A stretch of DNA of 64,000 nt from an uncultured Planctomycetaceae bacterium. Its GTDB lineage: Bacteria > Planctomycetota > Phycisphaerae > SM23-33. Below, one piece after another: positions 3,114 through 37,936 of the stretch (position 1 is its first letter; each line of letters opens with the position of its first letter). The stretch lies in NCBI GenBank assembly GCA_964583095.1, contig CAZOVB010000001.1, positions 63,940-127,939 on the forward strand, in the 5' to 3' direction. The translations under genes and the position numbers were made by a program. The notes beneath the pieces were generated by a model. The model was not told the DNA's origin and did no database searches. It was given only the letters and a program-made list of their open reading frames with translations.

Positions 3114-4124
3114 TCAGGAATCGGAGGGGCCAGCTTCTGCTTCAGACTTCCCGGTTTGGTAGATTCTGACCATGCGCTGGGCTGTCTGTTGAATGCGATC
3201 CCGCAACTGCCTGGGTTCTCTCACTTCCACCTGATCGCCGTAGCCCAGAATCCACCAACTGATTTCGCCCAGGCCGTCGACGCGACAGGTAAACTCGATC
3301 GAGCCATCCTCGTTCTGATTGATCTGCTGCGTCGGGTGCCAGATGACTTCCGCAACATTTCCGGCGACCTTCGAGCTGAAATGAAGGTGGATGTCATACT
3401 CCTTTCCTTCGGGAATCATGCTCCAGGCCAGCCCGAAGTGCTCATCCGGGTCGAAATCCTCCCCGTTCTCGAACCTGGCCGTAGAGACCGAAAGGTTTTC
3501 GATTCGATTGAGCTTGAACGTCCGAACTTCCCTGTGCATTTCGCTGTGGCCGATCACGTACCATCCCCGCTGGAAGAACATCAAACGGTACGGATGCAGA
3601 CGCAGTTCGATCCGGTCCTCTTCCGTAAAGCTCCGGTAGGTCATACGACAGATGTTCTTCTTGGCGATGGCCGAGACAAGATCCTCGAAGACTTCCTCGC
3701 TCTGTTGTGCATCCCCGGCGGCCGGGGGGCCAAGATGAACCGCCATGTGCTCCAGGACACTGCCTACATGATTGCGGACATACGAAGGAAGTACGCCCTC
3801 GATCTTCATCGCGGCCCGGGATGCCTGGCTCAGAAGCGGAACCTTGCTTGATCCCCTGAGTCTCCGGGCCAGGACGAGAATCGAAAGCGCTTCAGCCAGA
3901 TCCAGGTTGATCGGAGGCAAAAAGAAATGGCTGTTGATCCGATAGCTGCTCTGCTCCGGATCGAAGAAATAGGGAATCTTGGCCATCTCCAGGATATTCA
4001 AATCCCGGAAGATGGTCCTTCGACTGACTTCCAGCTCCCTGGCAAGTTCGGCCGGTGTGTACCGCCTGCCGCTCTGGAGCAGCGTGATGAGGCGTAAGAG
4101 CCTGTAAATTCTACTTATGCGCAT
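3114..4124 (-). CDS. HTH (DeoR-like) + WYL-domain transcriptional regulator
   Basis: N-terminal HTH YTPAELARELEVSRRTIFRDLNIL. Central WYL motif region FFQRGWYVIGHSEMHREVRTFKLNRI. About 336 aa, typical of WYL regulators. Confidence 0.75.
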   Translation of the reverse strand: MRISRIYRLLRLITLLQSGRRYTPAELARELEVSRRTIFRDLNILEMAKIPYFFDPEQSSYRINSHFFLPPINLDLAEALSILVLARRLRGSSKVPLLSQASRAAMKIEGVLPSYVRNHVGSVLEHMAVHLGPPAAGDAQQSEEVFEDLVSAIAKKNICRMTYRSFTEEDRIELRLHPYRLMFFQRGWYVIGHSEMHREVRTFKLNRIENLSVSTARFENGEDFDPDEHFGLAWSMIPEGKEYDIHLHFSSKVAGNVAEVIWHPTQQINQNEDGSIEFTCRVDGLGEISWWILGYGDQVEVREPRQLRDRIQQTAQRMVRIYQTGKSEAEAGPSDS

Positions 4125-6222: not shown

Positions 6223-7608
6223 ATGGCTGACATCGATAAAGTATTCAAGGCGTACGACGTTCGCGGGCTTTACGGCGACGAGATTGACGAGGACCTGGCC
6301 TGGAAGATCGGCTATGCCTCGGCCCAGTTTCTTCGTTCGAGCCTCAGTGGCTACGAGCGCGGGCAATCTTCCACCAACCGCATCGTCATCGGACGCGACA
6401 TGCGCCCGCACAGCGAGCCGCTGGCCAAGGCGCTCATTGACGGCGTGACCAGCAGCGGAGCCGGTTGTATCGACATCGGCCTGGTCGACACGCCCATGGT
6501 GTATTTTGCGATCAACCATTTCGGTTCGTGCGGGGGTATACAGATTACCGCCTCGCACAACCCGGTGGAATACAACGGGTTCAAGATTTCCGCCCTCAAA
6601 GCCAAGCCCGTGGGCCAGGATACCGGCCTGGAGGAGATCAAACGGATCGTTCAGGGGCTCAACCGAATGCCCGATGGGGCCATCATCTCCCGAGCCCAGA
6701 ACGTGGACCTCTGGGACGAGTACCGCAAGCACGTCCTGAAATTCCTGAACCTGCCTCGCAAACTCAAGGTCGTGATCGACGCCTCCAACGGCATGGGCGG
6801 CAAAATGTTCCCGGCCCTGTTCAACGGAATCGAAAACCTGGAGATCATCCCGGTCAATTTCGAAATCGGCCAGGGCTTCGTTCACCCGCCCAACCCGCTG
6901 GTCGAAGCCAACCTCCAGTGGACCAAGGACGCCGTCAACGAACACAAGGCCGATCTGGGAATCTGCTCCGACGGCGACGCCGATCGATGCATGTTCGTTG
7001 ATGAACTGGGCAACACGGTCCGCTGTGACCTGATGACCGCCCTGATGGCCAAGCGATTCCTGGCAGAAAACCCCGGCGCGATGGTTGTCTACGACCTCCG
7101 CTCCAGCCGGGTGGTGGCCGAGGAAGTCCGGGCCGCCGGCGGCGTACCACGGCGCGAACGTGTCGGCCATGCCTTTATGAAAAAGGCCCTGGCCACCGGC
7201 CATGCAGTCTTCGGAGGTGAACTCAGCGGCCACTTCTACTTCCGAGACAACTACAATGCCGACTCCGGCGCCATCGCCTTTGCGACCGCCTGTTCCCTGC
7301 TGAGCGAGCAGGACAGGCCGCTGAGCGAACTGGTCGCACCGCTTCGCAGATACAGCCACAGCGGCGAGATCAATTTCCAGGTCGACGACAAGCAGGCAAA
7401 GATGAAGGAGGTCGAGGAGGTTTTCTCCGAAGGCGAAATCGATCATCTCGACGGCGTGACAGTCCAGTTCGAGGAATGGTGGTGCAACGTCAGGCCTTCC
7501 AATACCGAGCCCCTGCTGCGTCTGAGTCTGGAAGCCAAGAACCAGTCCATGATGAACGAGAAGCTCCAAGAGGTCAAAAAGATCCTGGGTGAGCCGGTCG
7601 ACCACTAA
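6223..7608 (+). CDS. Phosphomannomutase/phosphoglucomutase (alpha-D-phosphohexomutase family)
   Basis: Active-site phosphoserine motif ITASHNP, GRDMRP, metal-binding DGDADR loop. 461 aa. Confidence 0.85.
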   Translation: MADIDKVFKAYDVRGLYGDEIDEDLAWKIGYASAQFLRSSLSGYERGQSSTNRIVIGRDMRPHSEPLAKALIDGVTSSGAGCIDIGLVDTPMVYFAINHFGSCGGIQITASHNPVEYNGFKISALKAKPVGQDTGLEEIKRIVQGLNRMPDGAIISRAQNVDLWDEYRKHVLKFLNLPRKLKVVIDASNGMGGKMFPALFNGIENLEIIPVNFEIGQGFVHPPNPLVEANLQWTKDAVNEHKADLGICSDGDADRCMFVDELGNTVRCDLMTALMAKRFLAENPGAMVVYDLRSSRVVAEEVRAAGGVPRRERVGHAFMKKALATGHAVFGGELSGHFYFRDNYNADSGAIAFATACSLLSEQDRPLSELVAPLRRYSHSGEINFQVDDKQAKMKEVEEVFSEGEIDHLDGVTVQFEEWWCNVRPSNTEPLLRLSLEAKNQSMMNEKLQEVKKILGEPVDH

Positions 7609-7640: not shown

Positions 7641-8669
7641 TTATCCGTCCATTCGAGTCAGGGCCCCCTCCAGAACGCTGCGACAGACATCACAGGCTTG
7701 GCACGCGCGGCCGCAGCGGGTGGTGCGATCGAAGAAATCTTCTGGAATGCTCCCCGCGTCGATCACGTAGGGCGCCAAGGCCGGGCCAAACCCCGGTTCG
7801 AGCAGGTCCAGCAGGTTGCCTCGGTACTGTCCTCGTGTATAAGCATCCACCACCATTCGCGGGTGCTGGTGCATGCGCGTGGCCAGCTTCACAACGTCAA
7901 AGAGTCCTTCGTAGTGATGAAGGTCCTCGGGGCGGACCCAACTGGCCTGGAGAATCATGGGCCAGTTCTTCCGGTCCTTCAACAGACGCCAGCAGGCGGT
8001 GGGAACAAATCCCTTCAGGTTCCGACGCTCATCGATTCCCGCATCGTGGGCCACCAGGTTGTCATGGAAGCTCTGGCTGGAGCAATGGGCGAAACAGCCG
8101 CTGTTGGCGAGCATCAGTAGTTTCTTGTTGTGAGACCGGGCCCAGTTGACCAGTTGCCCGATCCGCTTCAAGTCACGATTCCACTCGCGCTGAACGTAGA
8201 AACTGTCAAAGAGATCGGCCAGTTGCTCCATGCCCTGAACCGTGCCGATTAGCATGTTCACCGAGGCCCGGACCTCCACTTCCGGATGGGTCTGGCCGAC
8301 CACATGGGCTATGAACGGAGAAGTGGTGGTGATCACATCCACGCCCCCCACCACTTCCCGCAGATGATCCAGAACGCTCACGACCCGGTGGGCCAGTGCC
8401 TCGCTGACGGCTTCTTCGCCGTAGCAGGCGGCATTGAAGAGAAGGTCCAGCTTCAGACCCATCTGCCGGATTTCCTGAAGATCCTCCTCCAGGCGGCGCT
8501 GGGCGCTCCAGTCGGTATAGCCCCGCCGGCTTGCCAGGGCGGCCCGGCCCGAGGGCATGTCGCCCCAGGGGAAGTAGACCTCGGCCAAATGCTCGCGGTA
8601 GTCGCGAACCAATGCAGCAAAAGGCTCCTGGCCCGGGTCGGCAAGCTGGTATCCCACTGCGAATTTCAT
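7641..8669 (-). CDS. Hypothetical Cys-rich TIM-barrel-like protein, possibly peptidase-U32-like
   Basis: 342 aa. GCFAHCSSQSF resembles the U32 family Cys motif. C-terminal CGRACQACDVC cysteine cluster. It lies 18 nt downstream of the Fe-S protein gene on the same strand. Confidence 0.4.
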   Translation of the reverse strand: MKFAVGYQLADPGQEPFAALVRDYREHLAEVYFPWGDMPSGRAALASRRGYTDWSAQRRLEEDLQEIRQMGLKLDLLFNAACYGEEAVSEALAHRVVSVLDHLREVVGGVDVITTTSPFIAHVVGQTHPEVEVRASVNMLIGTVQGMEQLADLFDSFYVQREWNRDLKRIGQLVNWARSHNKKLLMLANSGCFAHCSSQSFHDNLVAHDAGIDERRNLKGFVPTACWRLLKDRKNWPMILQASWVRPEDLHHYEGLFDVVKLATRMHQHPRMVVDAYTRGQYRGNLLDLLEPGFGPALAPYVIDAGSIPEDFFDRTTRCGRACQACDVCRSVLEGALTRMDG

Positions 8670-8687
8670 CCGGACCTCCGTATCGGG

Positions 8688-9695
8688 TCAGTCCGTCTCG
8701 GAATCATCGGTGCTCTGGGTGAGCCCGGTTTCCGGCTCCGGCTGGGACCAGTCGACCGTCCAGGGCTTGCGACGCCGGAAATCGCTGTGGAACTTGTTGT
8801 CGACCACGCCGCGCTTTTCCATGGAGATCATGCAGGCCCGCGTGCAGCCTCGACTGCCGCAGACCGCCTGGCCGGTGTTGTACAGGTTGCGCGGCTTCTT
8901 CTTGAAGGGCGACCACCAGCCGGGCTTGGCCGTCGGGCCCCAGGGCATGTAGTTCTCTTCTTCGGAAACCGATTCATCCAGTACGGCACCCTTAAAGGCG
9001 ACGTTGCACTTCTGGCAGTCGATGTCCATCCACTCGACCTCTCGACCGGCCAGGTTTACCTTGACCGTCTTGGTCGGGTCGAACGCCTCGCCCGGGCAAT
9101 CGCGGACACAGGCCAGGCAGCGATTGCACAGCGGCTGGCCGTCGTAGATCGGGTCCGGCTCCAGGGCGGCCTCGGTCAGTATGATGCCCACACGCTGGCG
9201 CGGACCGAACCGCTTGGTCAGGAACATCTTGGAAAAGCCAATCTCCCCAAGCCCGGCCAGATAGCCGGCGATGCGGAGGTTGACCATTACGTCAGGCCTT
9301 GCCCTGCCCGGCGCTACCGGCCGCGATATCTGTTTGCGATCGTTGCCGACATTATCTATCGCCCGCCAGTCGCTCTGGTGACCGTAGGGAATCGCCTCGT
9401 AGCCGTAGTCTTCGATGTACCGTGAGATGTTGATCACCGTCATGGGCATATACAGGTAGGTGATCCCGCCGTAGCCCATGGCTGAGTAGTTGGAGAAGAA
9501 CGTGCCTTCCTCCACCCCTCGCAGACTTCCCCGCATGACGCGAAACGCCATCGCGATCACGCTCTTGCACTCGGGCATGATCTGCCGGGGGTCCTGCTGG
9601 ATAGGCGCCCCCTCCCATCGCTCGATATTGCCGATCGAGACCAGGTCGGCTCCCTGGGCCAGTGCGAATTTCTTGACGTCCTCTGCTCTCAGCAT
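8688..9695 (-). CDS. 4Fe-4S cluster protein of the QueG / reductive-dehalogenase-like superfamily
   Basis: Ferredoxin motif CNRCLACVRDCP plus a second partial Cys motif (DIDCQKCN). The N-terminal region resembles the epoxyqueuosine reductase-type fold. Overlaps the IclR stop by 7 nt. Confidence 0.5.
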   Translation of the reverse strand: MLRAEDVKKFALAQGADLVSIGNIERWEGAPIQQDPRQIMPECKSVIAMAFRVMRGSLRGVEEGTFFSNYSAMGYGGITYLYMPMTVINISRYIEDYGYEAIPYGHQSDWRAIDNVGNDRKQISRPVAPGRARPDVMVNLRIAGYLAGLGEIGFSKMFLTKRFGPRQRVGIILTEAALEPDPIYDGQPLCNRCLACVRDCPGEAFDPTKTVKVNLAGREVEWMDIDCQKCNVAFKGAVLDESVSEEENYMPWGPTAKPGWWSPFKKKPRNLYNTGQAVCGSRGCTRACMISMEKRGVVDNKFHSDFRRRKPWTVDWSQPEPETGLTQSTDDSETD

Positions 9696-10480
9696 TGCAG
9701 CATCTCCTCAGGTGAGTTTGTGTCGGATTCCCGGCCCAGTGTCGCGGCCCGAAAACGTAGATCCTTGATTATCTGTTCCTGCACGTCTTGTTCGGTGGGC
9801 GAAGCTTCGGCCGGAAGGGAAAGGCCCATCACTCCCAGCAATTCGTGGTGATTCGAGAGAATAGGAACGGCCACGCGAAACCCTTTTCCCCCGGCGCCCC
9901 GCATGGCCACCGCGCCGCGTCTGCGAGCCCGGGCAAGGAAATCCGCCAACTGCTCGGGGCTGTCCCAATGGGCCGTAGCGAACTCCTCGAACGGATAGCC
10001 GCGAAGATACGCCTGCCGTTGCGTAGCGGGCCAGAAGGCCTGAAACGCCAGCGCACTGGCCGAGGTGTAAGGAGCCATTACCTGGTGGCCTGGCTCTTCG
10101 ACCAAGCCGGGCATCTCGGGACTGACTCGGAGCCTGGCCACGATCTCGCGCCCCATGCTCTCGCTGAGCGTTCCGGTCCCGGCCGGGTAGTCGCCCTGGA
10201 GTTCCTCCAGCGCTTCTCGACCCCGCTGGAGCAGATCCCGCCGGCGACGTCGTTCGGAGAGTTCTTCCAGCCGGCGACCGAGTTGATATTTGGCTCCGCG
10301 GCCGGGTTTGTGAAGATAACCGCCAGAAGCAAGCGTCCGCGCGAGATTGTGCACGGTCGTGGTCCCGAGGTGCATCTGTCCGGCCAGTTCGGTCAGCGTC
10401 AGGCCCGACTCACTGGCGCCCACGCGATCGAGAATCTCCATAGCCCGCAGAACGGATTGTACTTGTGCTTTGCCTGCCAT
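9689..10480 (-). CDS. IclR-family transcriptional regulator
   Basis: N-terminal HTH (VQSVLRAMEILDRV..LTLTELAGQMHLGTTTVHNLARTL) followed by an IclR effector-binding domain. 263 aa. Confidence 0.8.
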   Translation of the reverse strand: MAGKAQVQSVLRAMEILDRVGASESGLTLTELAGQMHLGTTTVHNLARTLASGGYLHKPGRGAKYQLGRRLEELSERRRRRDLLQRGREALEELQGDYPAGTGTLSESMGREIVARLRVSPEMPGLVEEPGHQVMAPYTSASALAFQAFWPATQRQAYLRGYPFEEFATAHWDSPEQLADFLARARRRGAVAMRGAGGKGFRVAVPILSNHHELLGVMGLSLPAEASPTEQDVQEQIIKDLRFRAATLGRESDTNSPEEMLQC

Positions 10481-10633
10481 AATTCATCATTGATGAACTA
10501 AAGTTCATCCTGATGTCGAATATAGCAAAACACGGCCGGAGTGGTCAAGCGGTAACTGATAAATACGAGCCCGGTTCTGTCCCCCCTGGGCAGGGCAAGG
10601 CCTGGATCCTGCCGGGCCGGTTGCGACAATGGC

Positions 10634-13564
10634 TCAGCGAGAGGCTTCGAGTTCCAGGTGCCGGCGGAGGAATTGGCCGGTGTAGGAATCCGGGTTGTCC
10701 GCGACGTCTTCAGGCGTGCCCTCGGCGATGACGCGTCCACCCCCGGCCCCGCCTTCGGGACCGAGGTCGACGATCCAGTCAGCACACTTGATCACGTCCA
10801 GGTTATGCTCGATGACGATGATCGTGTTGCCCATGTCGGCCAGGCGGTTGAGTACGTTGAGCAGATTGTGAATGTCGGCAAAGTGCAGCCCCGTGGTCGG
10901 CTCGTCCAGCACGTAGAGCGTATGGCCCGTGGCCGTCTTGCCCAGTTCCGAAGCCAGCTTGACCCGCTGGGCCTCGCCGCCGGAAAGCGTCGTCGAACTC
11001 TGGCCGAGTTGGACGTAGCTGAGGCCCACGTCATTGAGAGCCTTGAGAAGCTGCTTGGTCTTGGGGAAGCTGTCGAAAAAGGCCAATGCGTCTTCGACAC
11101 GCATCTCCAGAACGTCGGCGATCGTCTTGCCCTTGTAGCGGACCTCCAGCGTCTCGCGATTATAGCGTGCGCCCTTGCATTCCTGGCAGGTGACGAATAC
11201 GTCCGGCAGGAAATGCATCTCGATCCGCTTGGTGCCCTGACCCTGGCAGGCTTCGCAGCGGCCGCCCTTGACGTTGAAGCTGAACCGCCCCGGCTTGTAC
11301 CCGCGGATCTTGGCCTCGCGCGTCTTGGCAAAAAGCTGACGGATCTGGTCGAACACGCCGGTATATGTGGCCGGGTTGCTCCGCGGCGTGCGCCCGATCG
11401 CCGACTGGTCGATCTCGATGACCTTGTCGATCCTTCCCAGGCCAAGGATCTTATCATGCTCGCCGGGCTTTTCCTTGGCCCCGTGAACGCGTCTCTTCAA
11501 TGCCCGCAGCAACGTCTGGTTGACCAGCGTACTCTTGCCGCTGCCCGATACCCCCGTCACGCAAAGAATCCCTCCCAGCGGGAATTTCACCGACAGATCC
11601 TGAAGGTTGTGCTCACGGCAACCGCGAATCTCGATCACTTTCCGCTGTGAGAGCTTCCGCCTCCGGGGGGGTGTTTCGATTTTCATGCGCCCTGAAAGAT
11701 ACTTGCCCGTGATGGAGGCCTCGGAGTCGCAGATCTCCTCCACCGTGCCCTGGGCAACGACCTTCCCGCCGTGCTTGCCCGCGGCCGGGCCCATGTCGAT
11801 CACCTGATCGGCCGAGCGAATCGTGTCCTCGTCGTGCTCGACCACGATCACCGTGTTGCCGATATCCCTCAGGTGCGTCAGCGTTCGGATCAGACGCTCG
11901 TTGTCCCGCTGATGCAGCCCGATTGTCGGCTCATCCAGCACGTAGCAAACCCCCACCAATCCGCTGCCGACCTGCGTGGCCAGGCGGATCCGCTGGGCCT
12001 CGCCGCCCGAAAGCGTCGCAGCCGTGCGGTTGAGCGAAATATAGTCCAGCCCCACATCGGCCAGGAAACGCAGGCGATGGCGAATCTCCCGCAGGATGGT
12101 ATCGGCAATCTGCGTTCGCTCCGTGTCCAGTTCCAGCGAGGCGAAGTACTCCAGGGCCTCACTGATCGACATCTCCGTCACATCCTGGATGTTCCTGTCC
12201 CCCACCGTCACCGCCAGGCTGGCCGGTTTGAGACGCGCTCCTTTGCACTCCGGGCAAGCCTGCTCGGACATGTACCCATGAAGCCGCGCCTTGACGTACT
12301 CGCTGTCGGTCTTGTTCCAGCGGCGGTTGAGGTTGGGAATCACCCCTTCCCAGTTGGCGGACTTATCGCCCTGCATCAGCTTTTTGCGCTGGTCGGTCGT
12401 CAAGTCCGCAAACGGCGTTGCGGGGTTCACGTCGAACCGCCGACAGTACTGGCGGATCAGTCGATTGTAGAAAATATTCATCCGCCGCCCGCCGTGACGC
12501 CAGGCATCGATGGCCCCGTTGGACAGGCTCAGGGACGGATCGGGGACGATCAGCTCCGGGTCGAACTCCAGAATCGTCCCCAGGCCGTCGCAACTGTCGC
12601 ATGCTCCATAGGGAGAGTTGAAGCTGAACATTCGCGGAGCCAGTTCTTCCAGGTTCGCCTCGCTGTGATGCGGACAGGCATAGGTCCCGCTGAAGAGCCG
12701 ATCCTTCCAGGTGGCCTGACCTTGTTCGTCCCGCTGCTCGTAGGTGATCACGACCAGCCCGTTGGCAAGCCCAAGAGCGGTTTCGATGCTGTCCGAGAGC
12801 CGGATCTTCACCGTGGGCTTGAGAATCAGCCGGTCCACCACCACCTCGATGGTGTGCTTCTTGTTCTTGCCCAACTCGGGCAGATCCTTCAAATCGTGGA
12901 TCTCCCCGTCGATCCGAACCCGGACGTACCCCTCGCGCTGCACGTGGGAGAGCAGTTGCTCGTGCTTGCCCTTCTGGCCGCGAACGACCGGAGCCAGCAC
13001 CATGAACCGCGTCCCCTCGGGCATCTCGAAGAGCGTATCGACCATCTGGCTGACGGTCTGGCTGGTGATCTGCCGCCCGCAGATCCAGCAGTGCGGAATA
13101 CCCACCCGTGCAAAGAGCAGCCGGAGGTAGTCGTAGATCTCCGTGATCGTCGCTACCGTCGAACGCGGATTGGCGCTGCCGCTTCGCTGCTCGATGGCCA
13201 CCGTGGGCGGCAACCCCTCGATGTGCTCCACGTCCGGCTTGGAAAGCTGCTCCAGGAACTGCCTCGCATACGCCGACAGGCTCTCCACGTACTTCCGCTG
13301 CCCCTCGGCATAGAGCGTGTCGAAAGCCAGCGAACTCTTTCCCGACCCGCTGAGGCCCGTCACTACGACCATGCGGTCGCGAGGAATCTTCACGTTCACG
13401 CCCTGAAGATTGTGCTCCTTGGCCCCCAGAACCACGATCTCACGGGAGGGATCTCCCGCCAGGGCCAATTTCCGAACGCCGGTTTCTGCGCGATCCACCG
13501 GCCGGGCCGCTCGCGAAGCAACCTTCTTCTTTTTCTTCCGGGCTGTAGTCTTGGATTTTGCCAT
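10634..13564 (-). CDS. uvrA: Excinuclease ABC subunit A
   Basis: Two ABC ATPase modules ([23 protein letters not shown]; [15 protein letters not shown]), zinc-finger Cys pairs, about 975 aa. Start taken at MAKSKTT (ATG at 13564), which lies inside the longer ORF-track call. Confidence 0.95.
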
Positions 13565-19748: not shown

Positions 19749-20720
19749 ATGAAGGAACGCTCTGCAATCGTCCGCCGGGGGTCTGTCTGGCTGGCCCTTG
19801 CGCTTGCCCTGGCCGGCGCGACGGCTGGCGCGCAGCAGGAATCGGAGCCCAGCGCCGGTCAGGAGGATCCTTTACCCCTGTTGATCAGTCCTGATGCGAT
19901 CGATATGCCCGAATCGCTCCGACAGCTTCTCGGGGATGTCTCGGAAGGTGGACGCTGGCAGGAAAAGGGCCTGGGCAAACTGATCTCCCACGCAGCTTCG
20001 CTGGAGGATCTCGGCCCGGAGCAGATCAACGACCTGGAATCCCCGAGTTACGCCAAACTGCTGGCCGCCCAGCGTGCCTACCGGGGTCAGGCCATCCGCC
20101 TGACGTTCACTCCCCGGCTCGTAACGCGTCACGAACCCTCGGCCAGGATCCCTGCCTCAAACCCCTTCTGGATTCTCCGCGGCTTCTTCCATGAAGAAGA
20201 GTTGGAGTGGGACCAGCCGGTGGTTGTCATCAGCACGTTTGACCCGGTCGGAGTTCTTGGCAAGCCCAGCAGCACCCGGCCCGACGGCGGGTTCCTTTAC
20301 GAAAGCCCGAAGCTTTACAAGGTCAACATCGTAGGTGTTCTGTTCAAGGTAGCCGACGAACCCATGGGCGATATGCGGACGGGGGAGATAGAAGGTACGA
20401 AACGCACGCCCGTCATCGTAGCCTGGCAGGCGTATCAGAAGACCTCCACTTCCGGGAGCACTTCCAGCCAGCTTCCAATTGCCATCGCGGGCATCGCTCT
20501 GTGCATTCTGGGGCTCTTTTACGTCGGGAGAAGGTACCTCAAGCAGTTGCGGTCCAACCGCAGCAGGGAAACCCCGGTCGAAAGGTACCGCCGCGAGCGA
20601 CAGGCCCGGCAGGAAATGGATGATTCCCAGGAGGATGAGCAGCCCCGCGTGGATCAGGACCTCATCCAGGCCGCAAAAGAGTACCGCAAGGAGCATCCCG
20701 TTGATCAGCAGGAGCGTTGA
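19749..20720 (+). CDS. Hypothetical secreted protein with C-terminal membrane anchor and charged tail
   Basis: Signal peptide (VWLALALALAGATAGAQQ). C-terminal TM (LPIAIAGIALCILGLFYVG) then R/E-rich tail. Same strand, directly after the sigma/anti-sigma pair. Confidence 0.5.
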   Translation: MKERSAIVRRGSVWLALALALAGATAGAQQESEPSAGQEDPLPLLISPDAIDMPESLRQLLGDVSEGGRWQEKGLGKLISHAASLEDLGPEQINDLESPSYAKLLAAQRAYRGQAIRLTFTPRLVTRHEPSARIPASNPFWILRGFFHEEELEWDQPVVVISTFDPVGVLGKPSSTRPDGGFLYESPKLYKVNIVGVLFKVADEPMGDMRTGEIEGTKRTPVIVAWQAYQKTSTSGSTSSQLPIAIAGIALCILGLFYVGRRYLKQLRSNRSRETPVERYRRERQARQEMDDSQEDEQPRVDQDLIQAAKEYRKEHPVDQQER

Positions 20721-21801
20721 CGTCCGGCTTCCCTCCCACCGCTACGAGGTCCGCATCCAGCCGGGCCTGCTCGAAAGCGTCGGGGACTTCGTAAATAAAC
20801 TGCCCGGTGTTTCCAGCATTGTAATTGTCAGTGACAGCAACGTGGCCGATCTCTACGGCCGGGCGTTGCTGGACTCCCTTGCCAGGGGCGGTCTGAAAGC
20901 GAATCTCCTGAGGTTTCAGGCCGGGGAGCAGCACAAGACCCTCTCCACCTGCTCGGAGATGTTCGACAGGCTTTTCTCCCTGGAGCCGGCCCTGGACCGC
21001 TCCAGTCTGCTGATCACCCTCGGAGGCGGCGTGCCCGGTGACCTGGGCGGGTTCCTGGCCGCAACCGCCCTGCGCGGGATCCGATTCCTCCAGTGCCCCA
21101 CCTCCCTGCTGGCTGCGGTGGATGCCTCCACCGGAGGAAAAACCGGCGTGGACCACGCGGCCGGGAAGAACCTCATCGGCGCGTTCCATCAGCCCGTGGG
21201 TGTTCTCATCGACCCTTTGTGTTTGAAGTCGCTGCCCTCGGAAGAGTTCAAAAGCGGCCTGGCCGAGTGCGTCAAGCACGCGGTCATCCGATCGGCGGAT
21301 CTGATGGAATTGCTCGAATCGCGTCGGGAGCAGATGCTCTGTTTGGATCCCGAGGCCTTGACCGAGTTGATCGCCGCCAACGTGCAGATCAAGGCCGATG
21401 TGGTTGTCGCCGACGAGCGGGAGCAGTCCCTGCGGGCGATACTGAACTACGGGCACACGTTCGGCCACGCCTTCGAAACGCAGATGGGCTATGGCCAGAT
21501 CACACACGGCCAGGCGGTCGCCTGGGGAATGGTGGCTGCCAACTGTGTCGCGGTTTCCCGTGGCCTGTTGGACGAGGCCGCAGCCGGCCGGGTGGTCAAT
21601 CTGCTCGATGCTCTTGGTCTCTCGACGCGGCCCGGGAAGTTCGGACTCGATGACGTCTGGGCCCGGATGCTCCATGACAAGAAGACGCGCGGGGGCAGGG
21701 TCAAGCTCATCCTGCCTTCCGAAATCGGCCAGGTGGAGATCTTCGACGACCTGAGCCGGGAGGAAGTCGCCGGAGCCCTGAAGAAGCTTTGGGGGGAATG
21801 A
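20703..21801 (+). CDS. aroB: 3-dehydroquinate synthase
   Basis: GGGVPGDLGGFLAA..KTGVDH..NLIGAFHQP..NYGHTFGHAFE motifs. The real start is uncertain (about 20703, TTG) because the upstream part of the 20479 ORF overlaps the previous gene. Confidence 0.85.
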
Positions 21802-36532: not shown

Positions 36533-37936
36533 ATGGCAAGAGCAAAGAAATGGATTCTTGCGCTGGGTTTGGCGGTTCTGACCTGCCCGGCAGCGGCTCA
36601 GGAGCCGGATGTCCAGGACCTCCTGAGAAAGTACGAAGCACTTCAGAAAAAGGTCGAGAATCAGGACGAGCGGATTGCCGAGTTGGAAGAACGCAAGACC
36701 GCCGAGGCAAAGACCAACCTTCTCCAAGCCCTGAAGGACCTCGAAGGGGACAACAGCATGAAGGTCTTCTGGAAGGAAGGCCTGCGGCTGGAATCCTATA
36801 ACGGCAACTTCAACCTGCGGATCGGTGGACGCATCATGTTCGACATGGGCTGGTCGACCGACGATGATTCGGCCAGCCGTTCGAACATCGGCAACCAGGC
36901 CGACTGGTTCGAATTCCGCCGGGCCCGGCTCTACACCCAGGGCGACATCTACGGCAACATCAAGTACAAGCTGCAACTGGATTTCGCCGACGGAAGTCTC
37001 TCGACCAAGGATGCCTACATCGCCATCGTCACCAACGGTCACAGGTATCTTGAGGATGTGGTCGATGAGGTCAAGTTCGGGCACTTCAAGGAGCCCTTCA
37101 GCCTGAACGAACTGACCAGTTCCAAGTACATCACCTTCATCGAACGGGCCACCCCCGTCTCCCTGCTGGCGCCAAGCCGAAACCCCGGTGCCGCCGTGAG
37201 CAAATACTGGTCCGACCACCAGGTTGGGTACGCGGCGGGACTCTTCAAAAGCGCCGACGACGGCGAAGCTGCCTATGACGACGGCTACGCGTTTACCGGT
37301 CGCGTTACCTGGGCGCCCTGGCTGGAAGAAGCCGGCCAGAAGCTCCTGCACCTGGGCGGTTCGTACAGCTATCGCCACGAGGCCTCGGGTTCCACACGAT
37401 ACCGCACCCGCGGGCCCCAGCACATCGGCAACCGTCCACTGGATACCGGAACGCTCAACGAGGTCGATTCGACCAACCTGATGGGTGCAGAAGCCGCCTT
37501 CACCTATGGGCCCTTCAGCATGCAGAGCGAATACCTGGCAGCAAGTCTGGCCTCGATTGACAACCAGGACGACCTGTGCATCAACGGCTTCTATGTCCAG
37601 GCTGGGTACTTCATCACCGGTGAACACCGCGTGTACAAGAAGGGTACCTTCTCCCGGGTCAAACCCAAGCAGAACTACAGCCCCGAAGGAGGCTGGGGCG
37701 CCTGGGAAGTGGCCGCCCGTTACAGCTACACGGACATAGACGACGGATCGGCCGGTCAGCTCAGTCGTCCCGGCGACGTCACAGCCGTTACCCTCGGTCT
37801 CAACTGGTACCTGAACCCCAACACGCGCGTGATGTTCAACTACATCCGCTCCTGCTGGGATATCGGGGACAGCTCGGCCACGGGCTTCACCGAGGACATC
37901 GATACCTTCATCGTCCGCTTCCAGGTCGACTTCTGA
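36533..37936 (+). CDS. Phosphate-selective porin O/P family outer-membrane protein
   Basis: Signal peptide, N-terminal coiled coil, beta-barrel region ending in a terminal F (RFQVDF). LNWYLNPNTRVMFNY motif typical of OprO/OprP. Confidence 0.75.
   Translation: MARAKKWILALGLAVLTCPAAAQEPDVQDLLRKYEALQKKVENQDERIAELEERKTAEAKTNLLQALKDLEGDNSMKVFWKEGLRLESYNGNFNLRIGGRIMFDMGWSTDDDSASRSNIGNQADWFEFRRARLYTQGDIYGNIKYKLQLDFADGSLSTKDAYIAIVTNGHRYLEDVVDEVKFGHFKEPFSLNELTSSKYITFIERATPVSLLAPSRNPGAAVSKYWSDHQVGYAAGLFKSADDGEAAYDDGYAFTGRVTWAPWLEEAGQKLLHLGGSYSYRHEASGSTRYRTRGPQHIGNRPLDTGTLNEVDSTNLMGAEAAFTYGPFSMQSEYLAASLASIDNQDDLCINGFYVQAGYFITGEHRVYKKGTFSRVKPKQNYSPEGGWGAWEVAARYSYTDIDDGSAGQLSRPGDVTAVTLGLNWYLNPNTRVMFNYIRSCWDIGDSSATGFTEDIDTFIVRFQVDF

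Follow-up and report, generated by a model that had tools for sequence, protein, structure and literature searches.

The window, the whole 64-kb stretch of DNA that was analysed, contains three consecutive minus-strand genes encoding an IclR-family regulator, an Fe-S protein and a protein related to the U32 superfamily. The operon is flanked by housekeeping genes. The features of the locus are as follows:

10519-10548, minus strand: promoter-like site in the 153 bp between uvrA and iclR, TTGACC-18 nt-TATATT plus a TG extension
10483-10497, no strand: perfect palindrome TTCATCA-N-TGATGAA, candidate IclR operator, beginning 17 nt 5' of the iclR ATG
9689-10480, minus strand: IclR-family transcriptional regulator, 263 aa, with a Pfam HTH_IclR match
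8688-9695, minus strand: Fe-S protein, 335 aa, RdhA/QueG fold, putative class-III cobalamin type with 2x[4Fe-4S]
9093-9128, minus strand: first cluster motif CNRCLACVRDCP of the Fe-S protein (residues 190-201)
8675-8679, minus strand: GGAGG ribosome-binding site in the spacer between the Fe-S and U32-like genes, found by sequence inspection
7641-8669, minus strand: TIM-barrel protein of 342 aa, a divergent member of the U32 superfamily, eight cysteines invariant
8082-8099, minus strand: GCFAHC of the 342-aa protein (residues 191-196)
7683-7715, minus strand: CGRACQACDVC of the 342-aa protein (residues 319-329)

All three open reading frames are genuine genes and not chance ORFs, since more than 1000 homologues exist for either enzyme (55-89% identity), the GC3 of the operon genes is 0.74-0.82, and the cysteines of both enzymes are invariant in alignments of 41 and 42 diverse homologues. 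The three cysteine motifs quoted in the initial annotation were all found, and the conservation on which its reading depended is borne out by these alignments. The close coupling that it described is also seen: the iclR stop and the Fe-S gene start overlap (ATGcTGA), and 18 nt, including the GGAGG, separate the Fe-S stop from the ATG of the U32-like gene. The best explanation includes a single operon that would be driven by its own promoter. The promoter-like site agrees with the consensus at 10 of 12 positions, a consensus match alone, and two such sites were found against 0.6 expected in shuffles.

The regulator scores 39.6 bits with HTH_IclR (cut-off 22) and 21.7 bits with the IclR_C effector domain, marginally under the cut-off of 24. 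By these domain matches it is assigned to the IclR family, as had been proposed, and a conserved operator-like palindrome lies ahead of its start. The BhcR, PcaR and KdgR models align over its full length (BhcR over residues 4-229) yet remain below threshold. The palindrome, whose 7-nt arms were recovered by a pattern search and overlooked by a repeat search, has a single exact match across the window. Allowing up to one mismatch, seven matches from five independent loci occur in 927 kb of related loci, and all seven lie 17-24 nt upstream of the starts of iclR homologues. IclR probably regulates its own gene through this candidate operator. Homologues of iclR with 35-40% identity stand directly upstream of the enzyme pair in 10 loci from metagenomes or genomes and in L012 and L013. 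Across the loci compared, the regulator of the pair is of the IclR type in about 10-11 and of the AraC type in at least 14. An AraC regulator replaces IclR in many other genomes.

The Fe-S protein consists of a nitroreductase-like cobalamin-binding fold followed by a ferredoxin module for two [4Fe-4S] clusters, which places it in the superfamily of PceA, QueG and NpRdhA, all of which its fold matches. Its closest sequence matches are PceA (1e-14) and NpRdhA (6e-9), and its best NCBIfam match is the RDH model TIGR02486 with 43.1 bits (cut-off 160.35), confined to residues 143-210. The QueG equivalog TIGR00276 gives 26.9 bits (cut-off 200), and the alignment to E. coli QueG covers only the core, residues 140-212. 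The protein is thus best classed, from these scores and folds, as QueG/RdhA-like, in line with the initial annotation, and as belonging to neither family. The hallmarks of QueG are a C-terminal HEAT-repeat domain and an active-site motif of D-Y-H plus Asp (PMC4646009). No HEAT domain, DYH motif or DUF1730 match was found in the sequence, and about 47 residues remain after the last cluster cysteine. Because both scores fall below their cut-offs, the HEAT domain and DYH motif are absent, and only the core aligns, a straightforward QueG, the reading that the initial annotation had set against its own, does not describe this protein.

The N-terminus of the Fe-S protein (MLRAEDVKK) contains no twin-arginine leader, so the protein is predicted to be cytoplasmic. 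Respiratory RdhAs have a Tat signal and an RdhB anchor, and the NpRdhA type has a fused reductase domain. Here no small membrane ORF adjoins the gene, and no reductase domain is fused within the 335 residues. In RdhA enzymes a catalytic Tyr-Arg/Lys pair lies above the corrin, namely Y246 and R305 in PceA and K488 in NpRdhA (PMC4646009). The segment that aligns the invariant R168 of the Fe-S protein with R305 and K488 is strong. For Y80, the match to Y246 comes only from a weak 2.9-bit segment, and this residue is lost in a second paralogue type (L068, L044). As modelled, the protein represents a minimal, cytoplasmic form of the class-III cobalamin/2x[4Fe-4S] reductase superfamily that has neither the RdhA nor the QueG lids. 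Class-III enzymes have no sequence motif for cobalamin binding (PMC4646009), and neither a sequence nor an AF2 model reveals cofactors; the Fe-S protein is therefore a putative user of B12. No Pfam or NCBIfam model covers the Fe-S/U32-like family.

The 342-aa protein had been described as U32-like, and this description stands for its fold and its relatives and fails for its own Pfam score. The fold search identifies a U32-type (beta/alpha)8 barrel like that of 5d88. Distant family members, with E values of 1e-40 to 1e-49 against the family profile, include P0342, P0349, P0351 and P0383, and these four pass PF01136 with 26.6-52.2 bits (cut-off 22.4). The 342-aa protein itself reaches 10.9 bits (E 0.27). 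Single-sequence and profile searches of the PDB with it gave no match, and the U32 link rests solely on the fold search and the intermediate sequences. Distant members of the family carry the database annotation 'U32 family peptidase'. Four of the eight cysteines that are invariant among diverse homologues (C82, C192, C196 and C226) are predicted to lie on the C-terminal face of the barrel in a U32-like site, and an additional invariant C-terminal Cx3Cx2Cx2C site is present. Three of these four share loops with UbiU C169, C176 and C232 according to hhalign, in which the family profile was set against the individual sequences of UbiU and UbiV from E. coli; the comparison was not significant and served for loop correspondence only. 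The model indicates a divergent U32-type TIM barrel that is distant kin of the O2-independent hydroxylases.

The two enzyme genes occur together well beyond this locus. A metagenome search with the family alignment returned 80 loci, and in 69 of the 76 informative ones (91%) the Fe-S gene adjoins the U32-like gene on the same strand; antisense ORF artefacts in high-GC loci (clusters 2 and 7) were left out of the neighbourhood analysis. A single-protein search of genome contigs returned nine loci. The paired loci belong to Planctomycetota, Lentisphaerota, Armatimonadota, Chloroflexota and Clostridia, and the proteins of the pair are 55-70% identical across phyla (65-70% for the Fe-S family alone). 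Such adjacency across phyla excludes a chance neighbourhood. The gene order is inverted in some loci, and others have tandem Fe-S paralogues. The Fe-S gene occurs without its partner in Kiritimatiellia and Phycisphaerae contigs, and the U32-like gene without an Fe-S neighbour in 6-7 loci, so the partnership is strong and not obligatory in cis. No common alternative neighbour was found in the loci without the Fe-S gene. As candidate Fe-S-U32 fusions, the longer matches P0331, P0248, P0317, P0275 and P0291 were rejected; they look chimeric or frameshifted. A full-text literature search found no paper on the pair, and its conservation across phyla is consistent with the earlier view of a module outside the standard pathways.

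In other genomes, genes for organic-anion MFS transporters, ABC transporters and glycan degradation adjoin the pair. MFS anion symporters lie within or beside the operon in L015 and L091, and one neighbouring MFS protein is assigned to the aromatic-acid symporter family. In L074 the gene of an ABC binding protein stands between the Fe-S and U32-like genes, and ABC permeases follow the pair in L001, L077, L080 and L096. The genes of members from goat caecum and digester Clostridia have sugar ABC transporter and glycoside hydrolase genes as neighbours. The neighbouring catabolic genes vary (GH20, GH42, GH84, sulfatase, heparinase-like), and no single substrate emerges from them. The window and 12 related loci contain no B12 transport or biosynthesis genes, and an Rfam search of them detected no riboswitch, the cobalamin type included.

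We consider it rather probable that the three-gene autoregulated operon encodes a conserved two-protein, O2-independent metalloenzyme for an organic acid or a sugar derivative that the cell imports. A small-molecule substrate is suggested by the IclR and AraC regulators and by the MFS and ABC transporters at the pair loci. IclR would control its own operon through the palindrome ahead of its start codon, and the operon would be inducible. The ferredoxin-like clusters of the Fe-S protein would take in electrons and pass them to the corrinoid, and the two proteins, presumably as a complex, would act jointly on one imported small molecule. The substrate would most likely be an organic anion, for instance a sugar acid or a different acid derived from carbohydrates or aromatics. 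A second O2-independent C-O step may fall to the U32-like barrel, or the barrel may provide the substrate-binding cap that the short reductase is missing. The role of redox modification given to the module in the initial annotation is kept here as a hypothesis. A more specific version is put forward tentatively: the pair could be a fourth class-III cobalamin/[4Fe-4S] type after RdhA, QueG and CblC, a two-subunit enzyme in which the U32 Fe-S barrel completes the minimal corrinoid/Fe-S reductase in trans, either by capping the substrate-binding site or by adding another catalytic site, for an as yet undescribed O2-independent C-O or C-X step on a sugar acid or organic acid taken up from outside. 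Such an enzyme would be widely distributed among anaerobes that degrade glycans, in the PVC group, Armatimonadota, Chloroflexota and Clostridia.

Among other explanations, the U32-like protein could be an O2-independent hydroxylase of a macromolecule or cofactor (rRNA, tRNA or quinone) like RlhA, TrhP and UbiU/V, with the Fe-S protein as no more than a dedicated electron-transfer partner. Every characterised U32 enzyme is such a hydroxylase (PMC6747719; PMC11574389), a conserved macromolecular substrate would be compatible with the 55-70% identity across phyla too, and the Fe-S protein does have a two-cluster ferredoxin module. This reading is nevertheless unlikely: the regulators are of the substrate type and transporters lie beside or within the operon, there is no partner of an RNA-binding or lipid-binding (SCP2/UbiT-like) kind, the U32 cysteines are spaced differently, and the Fe-S protein retains the entire cobalamin-domain fold with the RdhA-type Arg. 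To much the same low degree, the Fe-S protein might be a catabolic, non-respiratory reductive dehalogenase for halogenated organic acids, with the U32-like protein as an accessory or downstream enzyme. Its PceA, NpRdhA and RDH matches, the correspondence of R168 to the RdhA Arg/Lys and the aromatic-acid symporter would fit, and cytosolic RdhA-like genes have been reported to adjoin IclR/MarR regulators (PMC12219181). Those cold-seep genes are of the NpRdhA type from other phyla and fall outside this family. The RDH score of 43 bits against 160, the length of 335 aa against 450-700 aa with the substrate-lid regions missing, and the lack of rdhB and of a reductase domain speak against a dehalogenase. 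Moreover, RdhAs are hyper-diverse but the Fe-S family is 65-70% identical across phyla, and the caecum and digester members have a carbohydrate context.

A function in cobamide handling (decyanation, dealkylation or remodelling), with a CblC/MMACHC-like Fe-S protein and a TIM barrel acting on the cofactor, is improbable. The absence of B12 genes and cobalamin riboswitches from the window and the 12 related loci argues against it; the nearby transporters are of sugar or organic-anion types, and the RdhA and QueG matches of the Fe-S protein clearly exceed its CblC match. Database annotations as 'epoxyqueuosine reductase' and 'collagenase-like PrtC protease' would suit an ordinary queG beside an unrelated hypothetical gene, or chance neighbours. 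That explanation is hardly credible given the QueG score and core-only alignment (residues 140-212), the missing C-terminal HEAT domain and D-Y-H (compare PMC4646009), and the 91% adjacency. Eight invariant cysteines also speak against a simple peptidase.

Class-III B12 enzymes, like the U32 'oxidases', form a small, mechanistically unresolved class for oxygen-free chemistry. Further uncharacterised B12/[4Fe-4S] families that are hard to detect by sequence have been predicted (Payne et al., PMC4646009), and the pair is a concrete candidate for such a family, with thousands of members (about 3,800 and about 1,400 homologues for its two proteins). Its fixed U32-superfamily partner, substrate-type regulators and adjacent transporters offer an experimental handle, in which the ligand of the regulator would lead to the substrate. 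If the pair is a B12-dependent catabolic enzyme, it would represent a new reaction in anaerobic carbohydrate or organic-acid degradation, give both superfamilies a wider range of known roles, and correct the common mis-annotations 'epoxyqueuosine reductase' and 'collagenase-like protease'.

When compared to the RdhAs, PceA (4uqu/8q4h) and catabolic NpRdhA (4ras/6zxu), with their 450-700 aa, the 335-aa Fe-S protein lacks a Tat signal, RdhB, reductase domain and substrate-lid insertions, and is far under the RDH cut-off. It is also highly conserved, mostly paired with a U32-like gene, and found in sugar and organic-acid contexts. In contrast to QueG (5d6s, 5d08), it has no DUF1730 match, D-Y-H or C-terminal HEAT-repeat tRNA-binding domain and scores 26.9 bits against 200; its gene lies in a putatively inducible operon with a partner enzyme, whereas the context of QueG is housekeeping tRNA. 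The 342-aa protein fails PF01136 (10.9 bits), unlike UbiU/UbiV, TrhP, RlhA and Mk0906 (5d88). Its cysteines follow C...CX3CX29C where the U32 enzymes have CX6CX15CX3/4C binding [4Fe-4S], and it has the extra invariant C-terminal Cx3Cx2Cx2C. As its partner, a class-III B12-type protein takes the place of a second U32 protein, and the genes around it suggest that the substrate is small and imported. Similar to KdgR, PcaR and BhcR, the regulator has HTH_IclR and an IclR-type effector domain, its gene is the first of the operon under its probable control, and a palindromic candidate operator overlaps the iclR 5' region. On the contrary, it scores under every equivalog cut-off, and an AraC regulator fills its role in other lineages.

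The three minus-strand genes described in the initial annotation are present as open reading frames in the window, with every one of the three cysteine motifs quoted there, and the features of the locus are as follows:

10548-10519, minus strand, sigma-70-like site TTGACC-18-TATATT in the uvrA-iclR spacer (good, by consensus match only)
10483-10497, perfect palindrome TTCATCA-N-TGATGAA, starting 17 nt upstream of the iclR ATG
9689-10480, minus strand, iclR, open reading frame of 263 aa
8688-9695, minus strand, Fe-S protein, open reading frame of 335 aa
7641-8669, minus strand, U32-like protein, open reading frame of 342 aa

The iclR stop and the Fe-S gene start overlap (ATGcTGA), and 18 nt separate the Fe-S gene from the U32-like gene, whose ATG is preceded by GGAGG. 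Upstream, uvrA ends at 10634, leaving a 153-bp spacer to iclR, and on the downstream side the end of a convergent phosphoglucomutase/phosphomannomutase gene is at 7608. The remaining flanking genes (CheW-receiver, WYL regulator, outer-membrane efflux, HEAT-repeat, methyltransferase, and 3-dehydroquinate synthase) are unrelated, and the triad is therefore a self-contained three-gene insert amid housekeeping genes in this genome. The WYL regulator, an HTH protein with a WYL/WCX domain (3114-4124), and the CheW-receiver fusion protein (1666-2634) are encoded upstream of the efflux gene, and neither bears on the finding. The 3-dehydroquinate synthase gene (20479-21801) belongs to the shikimate pathway, which leads to prephenate, the oxygen donor for known U32 hydroxylases. 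Its nearness to the triad (~10 kb) is most likely a coincidence, because it is on the opposite strand and unrelated genes intervene.

The pairing of the Fe-S and U32-like genes is conserved across phyla. Database matches to the two enzyme families number over 3,850 and over 1,370, with 55-79% and 66-89% identity to the window proteins, and range over Planctomycetota, Brocadiia, Phycisphaerae, Lentisphaerota, Kiritimatiellia, Sumerlaeota, Armatimonadota, Chloroflexota, and Clostridia. Among 92 loci retrieved by the U32-like protein alone, 76 were informative, and in 69 of these (91%) an Fe-S homologue is encoded on the same strand no more than 2.6 kb away. The Fe-S gene most commonly comes first, with gaps of -4 to ~90 nt, and the order is inverted in three loci. 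Two tandem Fe-S paralogues precede the U32-like gene in four loci (L018, 3686-5730; L044; L048; L068, 297-2261); the second type has 40-50% identity to the window protein, with Y80 and the invariant GHQSDWR motif replaced, and may be a specificity or subunit variant. The U32-like gene is without an Fe-S neighbour in 6-7 loci, and the Fe-S gene is without a U32-like neighbour in Kiritimatiellia and Phycisphaerae contigs. Solitary Fe-S homologues with ~70% identity to the window protein were seen in L099/L100 (9001-10035) and L101/L102 (9001-10035), and the Kiritimatiellia gene begins 2 nt after an inositol-monophosphatase-family gene. No Fe-S/U32-like fusion proteins were found among the homologues.

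In Pfam, the Fe-S protein has ferredoxin matches only, all sub-threshold. The NCBIfam RDH and QueG models reach 43.1 bits (cut-off 160) and 26.9 bits (cut-off 200), both over residues ~143-210 only. A profile of 42 homologues retrieved PceA (1e-14), NpRdhA (6e-9), and QueG (3e-6) from the PDB, mainly in the core region. Fold match scores are 16.1 for PceA 4uqu, 16.0 for QueG 5d6s, 15.7 for PceA 8q4h, 14.6 for NpRdhA 6zxu, 10-10.6 for the B12 chaperones MMACHC/CblC and CblD, and below 8 for flavin nitroreductases. By these scores the protein has the class-III cobalamin fold with a two-cluster ferredoxin module, in keeping with the earlier QueG/RdhA-like call. Seven of the eight cluster cysteines are invariant (C190, C193, C196, C200, C230, C284, and C288), and C279 is ~90% conserved. 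The class-wide tyrosine (PceA Y246, QueG Y101; PMC4646009) pairs with Y80, in a weak alignment segment only. The sequence has no Tat leader, HEAT domain, or D-Y-H motif, and E. coli QueG aligns to residues 140-212 alone. A straightforward QueG, which the initial annotation had considered, and a canonical RdhA are both excluded by the sub-threshold scores, the missing elements, and the core-only alignment, and the protein is thus a third, shorter lineage beside them. The fold is what suggests cobalamin binding, and cobalamin dependence is judged to have somewhat better than even chances.

The 342-aa protein has no significant match in Pfam, NCBIfam, or PDB sequences (Pfam U32, 10.9 bits, E 0.27). 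Its family profile found 1869 clusters among 1.84 billion cluster representatives. Four distant full-length relatives, annotated at source as 'U32 family peptidase', match this profile (E 1e-40 to 1e-49) and themselves pass PF01136 (26.6-52.2 bits), which establishes sequence homology to the U32 superfamily transitively and upholds the U32-like call. Cysteine conservation, proposed earlier as a check on this protein, is complete for eight cysteines across 41 sequences from several phyla. C82, C192, C196, and C226 come after barrel strands 3 and 7 and the next helices, while C319, C323, C326, and C329 form an additional C-terminal Cx3Cx2Cx2C site that the distant relatives keep. At the strand ends, many Arg, Lys, Asn, and His positions are invariant, which would suit an active site for a ligand that may be polar or anionic.

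Distant relatives that pass PF01136 and share the C-terminal site occur in L103/L104 (4500-7050) and L105/L106 (4200-13054). In Bathyarchaeia, such a gene lies directly 3' of one for a B12-binding radical SAM protein; the Omnitrophota relatives belong to a RiPP-like cluster with PqqD, four radical SAM genes, and two U32 genes, of which one carries a TPR-repeat fusion. The radical SAM neighbourhoods are a second, independent association of U32 with a cobalamin enzyme.

The IclR assignment is borne out by a significant helix-turn-helix domain (39.6 bits, cut-off 22); the effector domain falls marginally below threshold (21.7 against 24), and the BhcR, PcaR, and KdgR models align over the full length at sub-threshold scores. 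Within the 64-kb window, the palindrome is not matched exactly anywhere else. When up to one mismatch is allowed, it occurs at only seven sites in 927 kb of related loci, each of them 17-24 nt ahead of the start of an iclR homologue preceding the same gene pair. They represent five independent loci (L005, L007, L008/L062, L012/L013, and L049), which vary widely in GC content and whose IclR homologues have merely 35-40% identity to that of the window. This is good comparative evidence for a candidate operator by which the iclR operon would be autoregulated. A second, imperfect copy (TTCATCACCGGTGAA, 2 mismatches, 37610-37624) is probably due to chance, since two matches arise in one of 100 shuffles. 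The exact window IclR sequence (9689-10480) is absent from a 15-billion-protein collection that contains both enzyme sequences; the public gene call probably starts at another codon.

In other genomes, an IclR regulator is upstream of the pair in 10-11 loci, an AraC regulator, whose gene frequently overlaps the stop codon of the U32-like gene, is beside it in 14, and a long AraC form is beside it in three further loci. The other recurrent neighbours are transporters. An MFS protein of the D-galactonate/ACS subfamily (L015) and an ABC binding protein (L074) are encoded between the two genes; an MFS protein of the aromatic-acid/sialate symporter family (L091) and a family-5 binding protein (L083) directly upstream; and ABC permeases with a large binding protein downstream (L001, L077/L080, L096-98). 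More distant neighbours include GH20, GH42, GH84, a sialidase-like BNR protein, sulfatases, a heparinase II/III-like protein, and FAD_oxidored proteins. Neighbours of this kind typically mark an inducible module for the catabolism of a small molecule that is imported and is probably acidic and probably derived from a glycan. L012 (1-2373, from an 8.6-Mb genome) has a second IclR gene 7 kb from the triad. Next to it comes the gene of a 378-aa protein that lacks any significant Pfam match, and beside the two, on the opposite strand, is a PFL-like glycyl-radical enzyme gene; the group may be another anaerobic catabolic module. A Gut-1 RNA (Rfam RF01706, 50.4 bits, narrowly over the gathering score) lies at 6531-6607 of L050, ~300 nt 3' of the AraC gene trailing the pair.

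The findings are compatible with a four-cluster, possibly corrinoid-bearing two-protein redox enzyme. Class-III enzymes require family-specific lids above the corrin, and these are missing from the 335-aa Fe-S protein. In the most economical model, both proteins would act on one shared substrate, with the U32-like barrel capping the corrin site and binding the substrate, or else catalysing a coupled C-O step, and electrons would move between the clusters of the two proteins. This general model, which we infer throughout, is regarded as fairly probable. A hydroxylase of macromolecules or quinones that has its own dedicated ferredoxin is unlikely, given the adjoining regulators and transporters and the complete cobalamin-type domain of the Fe-S protein. 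It is similarly doubtful that the Fe-S protein is a catabolic dehalogenase, against which stand its size, the missing lids, the strong conservation, and the sugar contexts. Cobamide processing by the pair is quite improbable, as B12 genes and riboswitches were not found nearby, and a plain queG with a hypothetical gene, or neighbours by chance, is scarcely credible in view of the HMM scores, the missing domains, and the 91% adjacency.

No Pfam or NCBIfam model was found to cover either enzyme family, and full-text literature searches found no description of the pair. The interpretation given in the initial annotation is supported. Both proteins fall within known superfamilies, so no new category is involved; the specific combination of a class-III B12-type reductase and a U32-type barrel seems not to have been described, and the breadth and conservation of the pair make experimental work worthwhile. 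In the known class-III enzymes, Co(I) reductively removes a leaving group, which is halide in RdhA and the epoxide oxygen in QueG (PMC4646009), and in U32 enzymes a TIM barrel bearing an Fe-S cluster performs C-O chemistry independently of oxygen (PMC6747719, PMC11574389). In the Fe-S protein, the invariant R168 is aligned to the Arg/Lys of the proton-relay dyad of RdhA (R305 in PceA, K488 in NpRdhA). C192, C196, and C226 of the 342-aa protein occupy the loops of UbiU C169, C176, and C232, whereas their spacing, CX3CX29C, differs from the CX6CX15CX3/4C of the U32 family (PMC6747719).
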